Below are positions 13,301-43,287 of a stretch of 64,000 bases of DNA, piece by piece. The DNA is from Eledone cirrhosa (Eukaryota), in NCBI GenBank assembly GCA_964016885.1, contig OZ024748.1, positions 47,554,001-47,618,000 of the forward strand, read 5' to 3'. The notes beneath the pieces are model-generated. The model did no database searches and was not told the origin of the DNA. It was given only the letters and a program-made list of their open reading frames with translations. Numbering within the stretch: position 1 is the first letter of the stretch; every line of letters begins with the position of its first letter. The translations under genes were made by a program, and so were the position numbers.

Positions 13301-13417
13301 ATTAATAAGAGGAATTTCAACTTTTTCTGATTTACTCGTTTTATTTACAATCCTTTAACATTTATAATGGTATTATAATGAAATAGTATGATAGAATATT
13401 AAATGTTAAGTGTTAAT

Positions 13418-13456
13418 TGAACAAGTACTTTCATGCTTTTGCAATCTTCAGGTTCA
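13418..13456 (-). ncRNA. Minimal type-I hammerhead ribozyme motif (family A, short arm)
   Basis: Reverse complement of 13532-13570, core intact. Confidence 0.7.
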
Positions 13457-13531
13457 TAATATGTGGTGACAGTCAAGTTTGCAATTTTCAACTGAGTTGA
13501 AAATTGCAAACTTGACTGTCACCACATATTA

Positions 13532-13570
13532 TGAACCTGAAGATTGCAAAAGCATGAAAGTACTTGTTCA
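13532..13570 (+). ncRNA. Minimal type-I hammerhead ribozyme motif (family A, long arm)
   Basis: TGAAC-CTGAAGA-T-TGC-AAAA-GCA-T-GAAA-GTAC-TT-GTTCA. Stem I TGAAC/GTTCA, palindromic stem III AGTACT. Confidence 0.7.
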
Positions 13571-13868
13571 ATTAACACTTAACATTTAATATTCCATCAT
13601 ACTATTTCATTATAATACCATTATAAATTTTAAATGATTGTAAATAAAACGAGTATATAAGACAAAATTGGAATTCCTATTATTAATATAATCTTCTATA
13701 GACAATCATACACACCCGTGTATATTTATCTATCTATCTATATATATATATATATATATATATATATATATATATATATATATATATATATATATATATA
13801 TATATGCATATATATATATATATATATATATGCATATATATATATATATATATATATATATGCATATA

Positions 13869-14180
13869 TGTAGGAGGTGAGTTTTATTGTAGTACAATAA
13901 AGCAATGCAGATATCGGATAAGAAGCACTCTACAGTTTGTAGGACTGGAGTATACATAATACATAAGATCTATAAATTGATAATATATAAGATATATAAA
14001 TTGATAAAGAATTGAATATTATCTGTATACTTTGTGAAATGTCTTATGGAATTTATGCAAGCAGATAGAAAACAAATCTGTTCGTCTATTTATTATAGAA
14101 TCTAGATTAGAGATAATGGTATTCCATAAGACATTTAAACAAAGTATACAGCTAATATTCAATTCTTTATCAATTTAGAA
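13869..14180 (-). mobile_element. Fold-back element with family D tail
   Basis: 13869-13965 is the reverse complement of the tail at 53800-53892. Inverted arms at about 13997-14053 / 14121-14177. Confidence 0.65.
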
Positions 14181-15620
14181 TCTTTTCTCAAAGGCACATA
14201 TACATACACCTCTTTTAAAATATACCCATCTTCCTACCTTATTTCAAAGGGTATTATACACTCTATAATACTTGTTTACTCATTACCCTTACTCTATTAT
14301 CACCTTGTAAAATCCTTCGTAACATATACATTTGTTTATTCATCCTTAATTCATTATTTTTTTCTCCCCATCATCTAACTCATTCTTAATACATATTAAC
14401 TCTTTCTTCGCACATATTATCAATTCCTTCAATATACAAACCTTAACTTCACATTATTTTTCTCAAATCCTTCAATACACAAACCTTAATAATATTTTTT
14501 TCTCTTCGTTAATTTCCATAATACTTGTAAACATACAATATATATGCATATATATATATATATATGCATATATATATATATATATGCATATATATATATA
14601 TATATATATATATATATATATATATATATATATATATATATATATATATATATATATATATATATATATGCATATATATATATATATATATATATGCATA
14701 TATATATATATGCATATATACATATATATATATATATATATATATATATATATATATATATATATATATATGCATATATATGCATATATATATATATATA
14801 TGCATATATATATAGTGTGTTTGTGTATATATATATGTACGTATATATTTGAATATATATATGTCTGTGTATACACATAAAAATGTATAATTACATATAT
14901 ATATATAAACGCCTACACAGTACAATCTATATAGCTAAGCGTGTGTTTATATATATATATATATATATATATATATGTGTGTGTGTGTGTGTGTGTGTGT
15001 GTGTGTGTGTGTGTGTGTGTGTGTGTGTGTGTGTGTGTGTGTGTGTGTGTGTTTGTGTGGGTGTAGATATATAGATATACACACACACATACAAACACAC
15101 ACAAAAAGAATATAAGCAAAACATTTCGCTGGAGTTTTTGTAGTGCAAAAAAAAAAGAATACACACACATATATGTATATACATATATATATGTATATAC
15201 AGACACAGTCACACATATACGAACACAGGCAACTACACACACACACACACACACACACACACACACACACACACACACACACACACACACACACACACAC
15301 AAGCACACACACACACACACACACACAGACCCACACACATACGAGTACATACACACAAAGAGAATGTGTGGTAGAATATATCTCCAGAGTTTTTGACTGT
15401 ATTGTAGTACAAAGTATAGAATGTATGTAGTTTGAAGGAAACAGTTTGACAAAGTGTTGAAATGAAAAAGACCAGCAAAAGACCCCGTCTTCGGCAGCTC
15501 ATTAGTTGGACATTGTTCACAACTTCGACCTACATCTCAACTATTATTACTTTCATTCATTTCTTACTTTCTTTCCTTCCGTACTTCTTTCAGACTATCT
15601 TTATTTCTTACCCTCTTTTC

Positions 15621-39692: not shown

Positions 39693-39900
39693 AAATATAT
39701 TACACAGAGAGAAGTGTGTAACACAGTGAGATGTGTGCAAAGAATTATTACATGTAGTAATTCTTTACACACATCTCACTGTGTTACACACTTCTCTCTG
39801 TGTAATATATTTGTATTGAGCTCAGTTGAAAATTCTCTGTTCTTCTTTGAGCTAATATTATTATAACTGAACTGCGTAATACTCTAATTCCGATCCTTGT
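39693..39900 (+). mobile_element. Fold-back family F (about 60-bp arms, apex CATG 39750-39753, about 90-bp tail)
   Basis: Palindrome 39693-39812 followed by a unique tail, (TA)n on both sides. No hammerhead core seen. Confidence 0.8.
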
Positions 39901-41589
39901 ATGTATATATATATATATATATATATATATATATATATATATATATACATATATATATATATATATATATATATACATATATATATATATATATATACAT
40001 ATATATATATACATATACATATACATATATATATATATATACATATATATATATATATATATATATACATATATATATATATATATATATGCATATATAT
40101 ATATACATATATATATATATATATACATATATATATATATATATATATATGTAAGTATGTATGTATACGTACATACATATATGTATACAGACGTACAGTA
40201 GCATGCATATATATATATATATATATATATACATACAGGTACACATACATATATGCACGTATCAGTTTTGCGGACGCTTGTTATAACGCCGCTTTGTTCG
40301 TTTGTAAACAAACTGAACAGCCTGAATTTATGCCGTACGGTGTTAAGGCAACCACGTCACCTTTTTGTTCAACACTGACACAGGAACGATGTACTAGTTT
40401 CAAGCTTGTTAGCTATCATCAGCACCGTATACCCTTCTGCCAGATAGTTGAACGTTCGAAAGTATATACTTTCCTTATGAAAATTAACGGCTGAGCAGCC
40501 TAATTTGCATATCGAGTGAGTTAAGTCGGTCAGGCATACCGAAAACGATAAGTTGAAATAAAATGAAAACGAAATTTCATTTCTCACTCTTAGTACGGCA
40601 CTTACTTAAATGTAAGTATGTATGTATACGTACATACATATATGTATACAGACGTACAGTAGCATGCATATATATATATATATATATATATATATATATA
40701 TATATATATATATATATATATATATATATATATATATATATATATATATATACATACAGGTACACATACATATATGGACGTATCAGTTTAGCGGACGCTT
40801 ATTATAACGCCGCTTTGTTCGTTTGTAAACAAAAATTTCGTTTTCATTTTATTTCAACTTATCGTTTTCGGTATGCCTAACAACGAAGGCTGACTTCCCA
40901 CTGGAACACCTGAAGCCTGCAATACATTCCTAGAGTGCTTGGAAAAATTGATTTCCATTTCTTTCGCTAGGCGATCTCACTCGGAATGGCTAACACGTGG
41001 TTAGGATGGGCTGTCCAGAGTCTACAGTCCCCGCGTGCTGCTGGACTGCTAAACAAGGACATAATCTTTACTTAATGGAGAACTGTCTGCCATGAAGGAA
41101 TAAAGAACTTTGAAACATCTTGTATGATCCATGTTCGTGATCTAAGACCTAACATCAAGATTTGATCAAGCAGTCAATCTCGGCTCAAAATCCTGTCATC
41201 TGCACTAAATGTAGCTTTATGTGTAACTCAGCAGCTGGACTAAAGTGTAAAGTGATATTTAAGGCAGACCATAAACAATTCAAGTGAGGAGGCTGTTGAT
41301 CCCTCGTATGTCGCTGTACGACAGGAAAGACCCTAATATATATTAGGCATATTTACATGTCTATACTCAAAACTGGGTAAATTTATATGCACATTCACAT
41401 AGTTTCAGATATCTCAATTATATATATATATATATATGTGTGTGTGTGTGTGTGTGTGTGTGTGTGTGTGTGTGTGTGTGTGTGTGTGTAACTTTATCAC
41501 ATACCTCTTTATCCATATATAGAGAGAGACACATGCACACACGTATTCATATATATATACAATGAAAATGACAATGAAAGAGTGTTTAA

Positions 41590-41812
41590 CCCTTTAGCAT
41601 TTACATTACTCTATATATATACTATTGTATTTTCAAGGTAAAGGCTTTATCTCACATAATTATCTCACATAATATCGAATTTATGAGATTTTGATAGTAT
41701 TTTGTTTTAGAACAATACTTTAAAATCAGTATAAGTGGCCAGTTACGGCCTGTTCAAACAGAAAGAGATGAGAGAATTCTGGCCGGATATGGCCAGTTTA
41801 AATGCTAAAGGA
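41590..41812. mobile_element. piggyBac-type MITE
   Basis: TTAA|CCCTTTAGCATTTA ... TAAATGCTAAAGGA|TTAA. Confidence 0.85.
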
Positions 41813-42328
41813 TTAAAGCATTTATCACTTACGATCGTTTCATCCTAGCAGAACGCCAGATTCCTCGTATTTCGAATCTGTAGCTTGTAACTGGGTAATA
41901 TTTATTACCCACATTATATATATATTTATATATAGGTATACTTATATGTATACATATATATGCATTATCTACATATATGCATATAACATATATATATATA
42001 TATATATATATATATATATATATATATATATATATATATATATATATATATATATATATATACAAAGTCTTAAAACGATTACATTTTAGTTTAGAACATT
42101 TATTTGCTGACAATTGTTTCTTCCAGAGGGAAGTCTGGTTTCATCGGAGCATAAGGAATATCGAAACATGTAACTAAAATACTAGTCATTTAGAACATTT
42201 AGGGTACATAATTGTTATTAGTGTCAAAGGCATCATGTGGAGAGCCAGGGGTTAAAAAGATGTTATGCTTGAAAGAACACAATTACAGTCAGCATTGGTT
42301 GGAAGTGTAATAGGTATAAGTAAAAAAG

Positions 42329-42766
42329 CAGAGATACGCAGTGATCTACATGTGGAAAATCCTGGAGGGACTAGCACCAAACTTTGGCATTGGGAGCTGG
42401 ACCAACCGTCGAACAGAACGTCAATGTGTGGTGCCAAAGGTCCTGTCTTCCACATCTAGAATAAGGAGCAGATATTGCAATAGCCTGGGCTTCAAGGGGC
42501 CTCAAATCTTCAACAAGCTGCCGAGGGATCTGAGAGATCTGCATGGTATGGAGGTGGATATCTTTAAGAAACAGCTCGACACCTTGCTTTCCAGAATCCC
42601 GGATGAGCCCACAGCAAGGCACGAAGGAAACCTAAGGGCAGCAGCAACGAACTCCTTCTTACACCAGTGGCCAACCAATACAGGCTGGAGATAAAATGTG
42701 TAGCAACAAGGGCGATGCCCCAGCATGGCCTCAGCCGGATGGCTTGAACAGGTAAAACAGTAAAAG
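42329..42766 (+). mobile_element. CR1/L2-group LINE 3' end (ORF2 C-terminus, stop 42694)
   Basis: IYMWKILEG...SLGFKGPQIFNKLPRDLRDL...FKKQLDTLLSRIPDEP, followed by a short 3'UTR with CAGTAAAA repeats. Confidence 0.8.
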
Positions 42767-42857
42767 AGTATATATATATATATATATATATATATATATA
42801 TATATATAGAGAGAGAGAGAGAGAGAGAGAGAGAGAGAGAGAGAGAGAGAGAGAGAG

Positions 42858-43287
42858 AGGTAAATATACACGGGTGTGTATGATTGTGTATAGAAGATTA
42901 TATTAAGAAGAGGAATTCCAACTTTGTCTGATTTACTCGTTTTATTTACAATCCTTTAAAATATATAATGGTATTATAATGAAATAGTATGATAGAATAT
43001 TAAATTCTAAGTGTTAATTGAACAAGTACTTTCATGCTTTCGCAATCTTCAGGTTCATAATATGCGGTGACAGTCGAGTTTGCAATTTTCAACAGTTGAA
43101 AATTGCAAACTCGACTGTCACCACATATTATGAACCTGAATATTGCGAAAGCATGAAAGTACTTGTTCAATTAACACTTAGAATTTAATATTCTATCATA
43201 CTATTTCATTATAATACCATTATATATTTTAAAGGATTGTAAATAAAACGAGTAAATCAGACAAAGTTGGAATTCCTCTTATTAATA
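42858..43287 (-). mobile_element. Fold-back family A, copy 2 (apex 43094)
   Basis: Palindrome 42901-43287 plus tail 42858-42900. Hammerhead intact on - (43019-43057). The + arm core is mutated to CTGAATA (43131-43169). Confidence 0.9.

Follow-up and report, generated by a model that had tools for sequence, protein, structure and literature searches.

We present here an analysis of two inverted-repeat hairpins in a microsatellite-rich stretch of the 3.0-Gb genome of Eledone cirrhosa (64,000 nucleotides, hereafter the window; GenBank assembly GCA_964016885.1, contig OZ024748.1, positions 47,554,001 to 47,618,000, forward strand). The arms of both hairpins are almost certainly the pseudo-long terminal repeats (pLTRs) of a Penelope-like element (PLE), here called family A. 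We estimate a probability of about 0.66 that such a hairpin consists of head-to-head 3′-terminal repeats made in one insertion, in which two reverse transcripts were joined at the likely 5′ end of the element's RNA.

Tails, apices and the likely RNA start

Each window hairpin carries 40 extra bases, the tail, at the outer end of one arm only. The same asymmetry is found genome-wide. Among 52 start-site hairpins, 32 combine a tail with a pLTR end, none has two tails or two pLTR ends, and 20 have a broken or short arm. Classified by script, 67 of 70 pairs consist of one tailed and one tail-less arm; of the three exceptions, L138 and L076 proved on inspection to follow the rule, and L056 did not. 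The one-tail rule also holds in all 14 short hairpins with a second apex (+71, counted from the A of AGTTG as position 0) and in 15 of 15 distinct pairs of family B, an unrelated PLE. Because pairs combine one tailed with one tail-less arm, any fold-back must start from the tailed strand.

The first-pass annotation of this stretch had proposed that each insertion regenerates its second arm by self-priming at a fixed fold-back point. In its simple form, this predicts a tailed arm that always lies farther 5′ and a fixed apex base. Neither prediction is borne out. When the major apex is oriented by the tail, it is A in 214 hairpins and T in 213 genome-wide (binomial p = 1.0). Of the 14 hairpins at +71, 6 have the tailed and 8 the tail-less arm extending farther 5′, and longer pairs at 20 hand-picked loci gave 7 junctions with a tailed and 7 with a tail-less farther arm, the rest being unclear.

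Hairpins with the exact apex number 706 genome-wide (0 for a reversed-pattern control), and exact family A arm starts number 3,870. Arm starts were sampled at 70 loci (74 distinct starts) in the first 78 Mb of contig C1, from 100 listed places less the hairpins and full-length candidates already fetched and the last three; by design, this sample is blind to ends inside the arm. Starts at -2 to 0 account for 39 of the 74, and 35 arms continue into the parent element. The junctions of other pairs are scattered, as far as 4 kb upstream. The fixed apex of the first-pass annotation is thus a strong, nonrandom hotspot rather than a universal one. One arm starts at +71, the predicted hammerhead cut, in 35 exact junctions genome-wide; a local TGTT/AACA repeat could account for this second apex class (L217-L230) without cleavage. 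Hammerhead cutting was rejected as the cause of the main apex, which lies at -2 and not at +71.

Several features mark the hotspot as very probably the transcription start, that is, the RNA 5′ end. In both subfamilies, the A at -2 lies exactly 31 nt below the start of a TATA box (TATATAAG or TATAAAAG), with CCAAT motifs farther upstream. Among 120 wider-loop junctions, the first 50 were read and comprise 38 of the form TGTCA/TGACA, 7 CAACTGT-C-ACAGTTG, 3 TGCA, and 2 others, with no blunt -2/-2 join among them. The extra C in the seven junctions has no counterpart in the parent, and such an added base would fit copying of the cap. Family B offers a parallel: of 29 arms sampled, 19 begin no more than 10 nt from a position 29 nt below TATTTAAA. 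We read the hotspot as a likely RNA 5′ end because of the exact TATA spacing, the cap-compatible base, and this parallel. In contigs from four runs, summed depth rises about 20-fold near the apex in X1 and X4; RNA starts are unreadable from contigs, and these values were not used.

Window hairpins, parent element and sister arms

Copy 1 consists of a tail-less pLTR arm (13300..13493, minus strand) that ends at TTATTAATA and gives way to (TA)n, a loop G (13494), a long pLTR arm (13495..13688, plus), and a 40-bp tail (13689..13728, plus). Copy 2 lies in the opposite orientation, with a 40-bp tail (42861..42900, minus), a long pLTR arm (42901..43093, minus), a loop A (43094), and a tail-less pLTR arm (43095..43287, plus) followed by (TA)n. 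The apex of copy 1 (CAACT-G-AGTTG) belongs to a minor class with a 3-nt loop, seen in 2 of the 52 hairpins, and that of copy 2 to the major class with a 1-nt loop (43 of 52). The apex that had been described as shared is at the same site but not identical, CAAC-TGA-GTTG and CAAC-A-GTTG differing by two bases. A repeat search of the whole window (find_repeats) was swamped by microsatellites.

Putative type I hammerhead motifs (CTGAAGA, stem II, GAAA, and a palindromic AGTACT) are located in copy 1 at 13423..13451 (tail-less arm, minus) and 13537..13565 (long arm, plus), and in copy 2 at 43024-43052 (long arm) and 43136-43164 (tail-less arm), the last with one core change. By our own descriptor, stem I has 5 bp and stem II 3 bp, and helix III is palindromic in three of the four window arms. 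An Rfam search returned sub-threshold microRNA (miRNA) matches only and no hammerhead match. Overall, the pLTR RNA folds no better than shuffled sequences (z -0.37); the 40-nt tail contains an AC-rich stem-loop. At the start of the proposed RNA, the first 27 nt (pLTR -2 to +25, e.g., window 43095-43120) would form an 8-bp stem. All motifs listed by the first-pass annotation are present in both arms where it placed them, and its T/C variant (GTCAAG/GTCGAG) converts a G·U pair of this stem to G-C. Very short inverted arms stop at the 3′ foot of the stem. At +31 to +35, loci L062, L100, and L125 carry linked multi-base variants in one arm only, the arms otherwise agreeing.

Each arm corresponds to the 3′-terminal 194 bp (pLTR) of a 4.2-kb element, an identity that the first-pass annotation did not recognize. 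When the genome was searched with one arm, 948 candidates emerged at first look, and 40 of them were scored. Many copies run past the apex into a 3′ untranslated region (UTR) and a reverse transcriptase (RT)-endonuclease (EN) frame. Full units at L076 and L077 have direct pLTRs 4,202 bp apart that are 99.0% and 98.6% identical, enclosing open reading frame (ORF) 1 (~450 aa) and an overlapping RT/GIY-YIG ORF2 (775 aa in L079). The tail is the sequence that follows the 5′ pLTR in the full element. The L079 ORF2 matches Pfam RVT_1 (E 2.9e-6; 27.6 bits, below the curated cut-off of 29.6) and GIY-YIG (E 3.3e-6; 27.8 bits, above the cut-off of 22.6), the latter at C-terminal residues 687-773. Protein relatives number 471 at E<=1e-50, and the named ones are mostly molluscan; among 120 relatives listed, most contain RT and many also GIY-YIG. 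A CX2-5CxxC linker motif (C-NDNR-C-GT-C) precedes LIYCIKC...YVGQTG and is followed by H residues, giving a CCHH arrangement. On this motif and on TA targeting, the element may be labeled Neptune-type. An inverted 5′-truncated copy lies on the 5′ side of L076, L078, and L079 and in the 70 pairs; the hairpins lack ORFs and are head-to-head pLTR pairs. Tail-less ends enter (TA)n in 35 of 40 cases, which masks any target-site duplication. The element is a new family of a known class with a known overall arrangement.

Three other assignments were rejected. Naiad PLEs, whose EN is N-terminal and which have no canonical hammerhead, were ruled out by the C-terminal EN and the hammerhead motif. Equal terminal inverted repeats and a transposase, which define miniature inverted-repeat transposable elements (MITEs) and foldback transposons, are replaced here by a one-sided tail and an RT-encoding parent. 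Twin priming of the LINE-1 type does not describe arms that both copy the same segment to the same 5′ site. The L079 locus (G000:C1:21871700-21881100) is itself a palindrome of 9.35 kb, made up of two full-length copies that are 98.3% identical; ORF1 and ORF2 are open in both arms, and its apex lies at the predicted hammerhead cut.

The arms of each hairpin had been described as more similar to each other than to the other copy. In the window this holds for copy 2, with 4 of 195 alignment columns differing between its arms, and not for copy 1, where the count is 10 of 195 and equals that between the two short arms. Five columns of the four-arm alignment sort by locus and none by side; all five are variants also present in other family copies, four being common subfamily markers and none locus-private.

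Genome-wide, grouping by locus is clear. Of 69 pairs (L076 excluded as mis-paired), 55 are concordant at all 7 subfamily sites (mean 10.2 and maximum 22 in 5,000 shuffles), and no column splits tailed from tail-less arms (smallest p 0.058). Two points of the first-pass interpretation are supported: both arms are made anew with each insertion, from the same source subfamily, and the apex is not random. The suggested tree of separated arms (137 arms; 19 same-locus cherries, 10 same-side, 7 opposite-side) is poorly resolved because young copies are nearly identical. The sister arm is strictly nearest for 18 of 66 arms and nearest or tied for 34. In 33 hairpins with both arms long, distance is 0.019 within and 0.047 between loci, and between loci it is equal for same-side (0.0468) and opposite-side (0.0469) arms.

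The proposed alternative of conversion within the hairpin is not supported as the main cause of this likeness. Among private changes in 70 pairs, 58 are in one arm and 15 in both, without a gradient toward the apex; within 20 nt of the apex, the ratio is 12:1. Since one-arm changes prevail, the arms begin alike and then drift apart independently. Some conversion, or private variants of the source, does exist, conversion being minor at most: sisters are somewhat closer to each other than to same-subfamily arms elsewhere (0.0114 versus 0.0165; n = 46, p = 0.0006). At least two common variants differ in 15 of 70 pairs (e.g., L011 and L089), which suggests that two different RNAs took part in some insertions.

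Proposed mechanism and alternatives

The joining of two complementary DNAs (cDNAs) is probable, and we propose that it proceeds as follows. RNA polymerase II would initiate on the A of ACAGTTG. Both strands of a (TA)n target would be nicked by the element's protein, and each strand would prime one reverse transcript, with RT beginning at the end of the tail on one and at the end of the pLTR on the other; both starts are known in vitro from an Anolis PLE. Both cDNAs would run to the RNA 5′ end and finish in ...CAACTGT-3′, sometimes with a cap-templated C. The cDNA ends would pair over ACTGT/ACTGT with a central T·T mismatch and be extended on each other. The two major apex forms at 1:1 would be expected from such extension because the mismatch would be fixed at random to A or T. 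Ends with an added C would pair over GTC/GTC and yield the TGTCA/TGACA class, for which a -2/-1 blunt join would read identically. One source locus, through one RNA or two sister RNAs, would supply both arms, and hence their likeness. We lean, with modest confidence, toward a broader joint claim: that PLEs integrate by obligatory double priming, with inverted repeats as the normal product and not as self-priming accidents, and that a TATA promoter in the 3′ UTR yields a capped RNA with quasi-palindromic first five bases.

A rival account has a single cDNA that is primed at the tail and extends as far as the RNA 5′ end; it then folds back to copy the second arm, which joins (TA)n at TTATTAATA. 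Such a fold-back would explain identical arms, a fixed apex, and the one-tail rule together, and inverted arms of 10-40 nt and the templated patches at many junctions have the look of it. In the 5′ hairpin, a complement of the cDNA end ACTGT lies at a distance of 17 nt, L008 carries that junction, and PLE palindromes in rotifers have been interpreted as self-priming in the part of PMC3846280 available to us. However, a first strand without a tail offers no template for one, and the tailed arm would thus be expected to be the longer in every case, which it is not; the apex base should be fixed, whereas both bases occur equally; and the major junction would require a 1-nt hairpin loop. As a sole route, fold-back is contradicted unless later inversion randomized the orientation, and we consider it unlikely. 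That exception leads to a further alternative, in which hairpins formed by fold-back or otherwise recombine later between their arms, flipping the interior and converting the arms, so that likeness and the 50:50 apex both follow. A within-locus distance about 30% under the same-subfamily distance and the 15 changes common to both arms are in keeping with this, as was a cluster of shared changes at +50 to +100 in the first 33 pairs. That cluster was lost with 70 pairs (Fisher p = 0.29), the excess of one-arm changes, also nearest the apex, runs the other way, hairpins whose arms show 0 differences include both apex types, and older hairpins retain 5-11 differences. Later inversion is counted against because it should erase arm differences, yet these persist, and we regard such recombination as distinctly unlikely to be the source of the pattern.

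It is very unlikely that two cDNAs are joined at a hotspot that is instead an RT stop or an RNA processing site. The hotspot, ...TCATTACAG|TTG, resembles a 3′ splice site, a YAG is found there in family A (TTACAG) and family B (TTTAG/TTCAG), and in Drosophila Penelope the pLTR contains an intron and the internal promoter lacks a TATA box, as given in the available part of PMC2377424. The arms, however, retain ACAG and include no exon from upstream, two subfamilies have exact TATA spacing, the C/G added in seven junctions is compatible with a cap, and the predicted hammerhead cut covers at most the 35 exact junctions at +71 and not the apex. Scarcely credible is a hairpin that is itself mobile, whether as a MITE, as a foldback DNA transposon, or through whole-length copying of a palindromic RNA. 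The hairpin as a whole does form an about 390-bp perfect inverted repeat in a TA context and recurs with one apex in 706 copies. Against mobility stand the unequal ends, arms that are the 3′ end of an RT element, the lack of any site or distance that follows side, the many junction forms, and the absence of the upstream TATA box from the hairpin.

Several observations weigh against the two-cDNA join at an RNA 5′ end. One arm is shorter than 40 nt in 14 of the 52 start-site hairpins, mostly ending at +21 to +28, many junctions contain short templated patches, and L119 and L152 have ~75-nt inversions at internal 5′ ends. The short-arm hairpins, L119, and L152 look like short fold-backs and are unexplained by two normal RT starts; fold-back by a repair polymerase on single cDNAs may be a second route. 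Later inversion between arms could randomize the apex. At least one of the 7 core sites is discordant in 14 of 69 pairs, and the closer distance between sisters also counts here. Family D, another PLE in the window, has no clear TATA at -30, and most of its arms extend upstream. The promoter type proposed here differs from the TATA-less internal one of Drosophila Penelope described in the consulted portion of PMC2377424. Finally, start sites in the Anolis PLE lack target homology, whereas both ends here lie in TA-rich RNA, as far as the accessible text of PMC11167929 shows.

Other window repeats and known systems

Family B is present at 19632-19817, 21503-21569, 25484-25679, 26292-26502 (with a poly-A patch at the apex), and 53043-53411 as short hairpins and solo copies. 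It is the 3′ end of another PLE with a ~1.2-kb 3′ UTR and a ~80-nt tail; the CTGANGA-GAAA core was not found in its window copies. Family D (hairpin at 26725-27316, solo at 53936-54210) corresponds to the pLTR of a second PLE, which has a Neptune-type linker as well as a hammerhead core, and forms a four-unit 4.15-kb tandem at G000:C1:14.38-14.39 Mb. At least three window families (A, B, and D) are thus PLE ends, and their motifs match the genome exactly at 3,870, 22,786, and 3,781 places, respectively. Further palindromes adjoin (TA)n at 22975-23426, 30386-30861, 39689-39816, 53465-53891 (solo relative at 13870-13983), 60345-60635, 60833-61036, 26064-26146, and 13989-14184. Several have one arm longer, that at 60833-61036 has hammerhead motifs in both arms, and they are probably ends of more PLE families.

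The window also contains a GC-rich fragment of another PLE with RT thumb and GIY-YIG frames (55787-56843, minus; Pfam GIY-YIG E 0.006), broken Helitron-like Rep/Pif1 helicase frames (48126-51177, minus; Pif1_2B_dom E 1e-14), and a 369-aa open frame of transposon-derived appearance without a Pfam match (62849-63958, plus). A ~600-bp repeat of 92-94% identity occurs at 24107-25296, 36844-37252, and 44029-44634, as two tandem copies and one solo; the copy at 36844-37252 has an inverted half that resembles a twin-priming inversion. A 94-bp minisatellite (11 copies, 94% matches) spans 34170-35225, and a dispersed family resembling short interspersed nuclear elements, 85-97% identical, lies at 20306-20821, 35219-35401, 47338-47479, and 58480-58668.

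In LINE-1 twin priming, both target strands prime cDNA, and the two cDNAs join via microhomology to give an inversion. There each of the two pieces represents a different part of the RNA and the position of the second primer varies, whereas here the same segment is copied from two fixed starts. MITEs and foldback transposons likewise present short palindromic repeats in TA; the hairpins here differ in their unequal ends, RT parent, and lack of a side lineage. Palindromes of this kind would be catalogued as MITEs or miRNA-like hairpins. The one-tail rule and full left-right symmetry mean that genomic counts alone separate fold-back from double priming. If the proposed join is correct, thousands of short hairpins record it base by base, including a T·T mismatch repaired 214:213, and it helps to explain how PLEs make inverted repeats.

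Octopus repeat annotation records PLEs, without structural detail in the available part of PMC13282606. A proposal of two cDNAs joined head to head for PLEs was not found in titles and abstract openings, subscription papers and supplements being outside this scope. EN+ PLEs of the Neptune/Nematis type (Craig et al. 2021, PMC8557442, in the part available) have RT, a C-terminal GIY-YIG, a CX2-5CxxC linker, and pLTRs, all shared with the element described here, together with a pLTR hammerhead, (TA)n targets, an adjacent inverted 5′-truncated copy, and a 30-40 bp tail at one end; such features are also given in the accessible text of PMC4209133. In the same part of PMC8557442, pLTR 5′ ends are variable truncations and the origin of tandem and inverted PLE structures is called unresolved. 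Here, over half of the sampled arms start within 3 nt, and the starts below a TATA box and the hundreds of ORF-free hairpins are unlike the PLEs described there.

For Poseidon PAc of Anolis carolinensis, a PLE of a different clade, the available part of the study (Frangieh et al. 2024, PMC11167929) reports that both target strands are cut and extended, that a dimer is predicted, that RT starts at two sites bounding the tail, and that hammerhead cleavage is not needed. PAc shares with family A the AC-rich tail stem-loop, the AT-rich target, and the two-site tail boundary. Steps after first-strand synthesis, including the second strand and the inverted join, are left untested in that text; the junction counts presented here provide new genomic evidence on how PLE integration proceeds at this point, together with exact predictions for the in vitro system already established. 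Penelope elements of Adineta vaga (Arkhipova et al. 2013, PMC3846280, in the portion consulted) have head-to-head inverted pLTRs, palindromic junctions, and an optional tail, and their pLTRs likewise hold TATA/initiator-like motifs. Those palindromes were ascribed to self-priming on an antisense template, whereas the counts here favor two sense-templated cDNAs.

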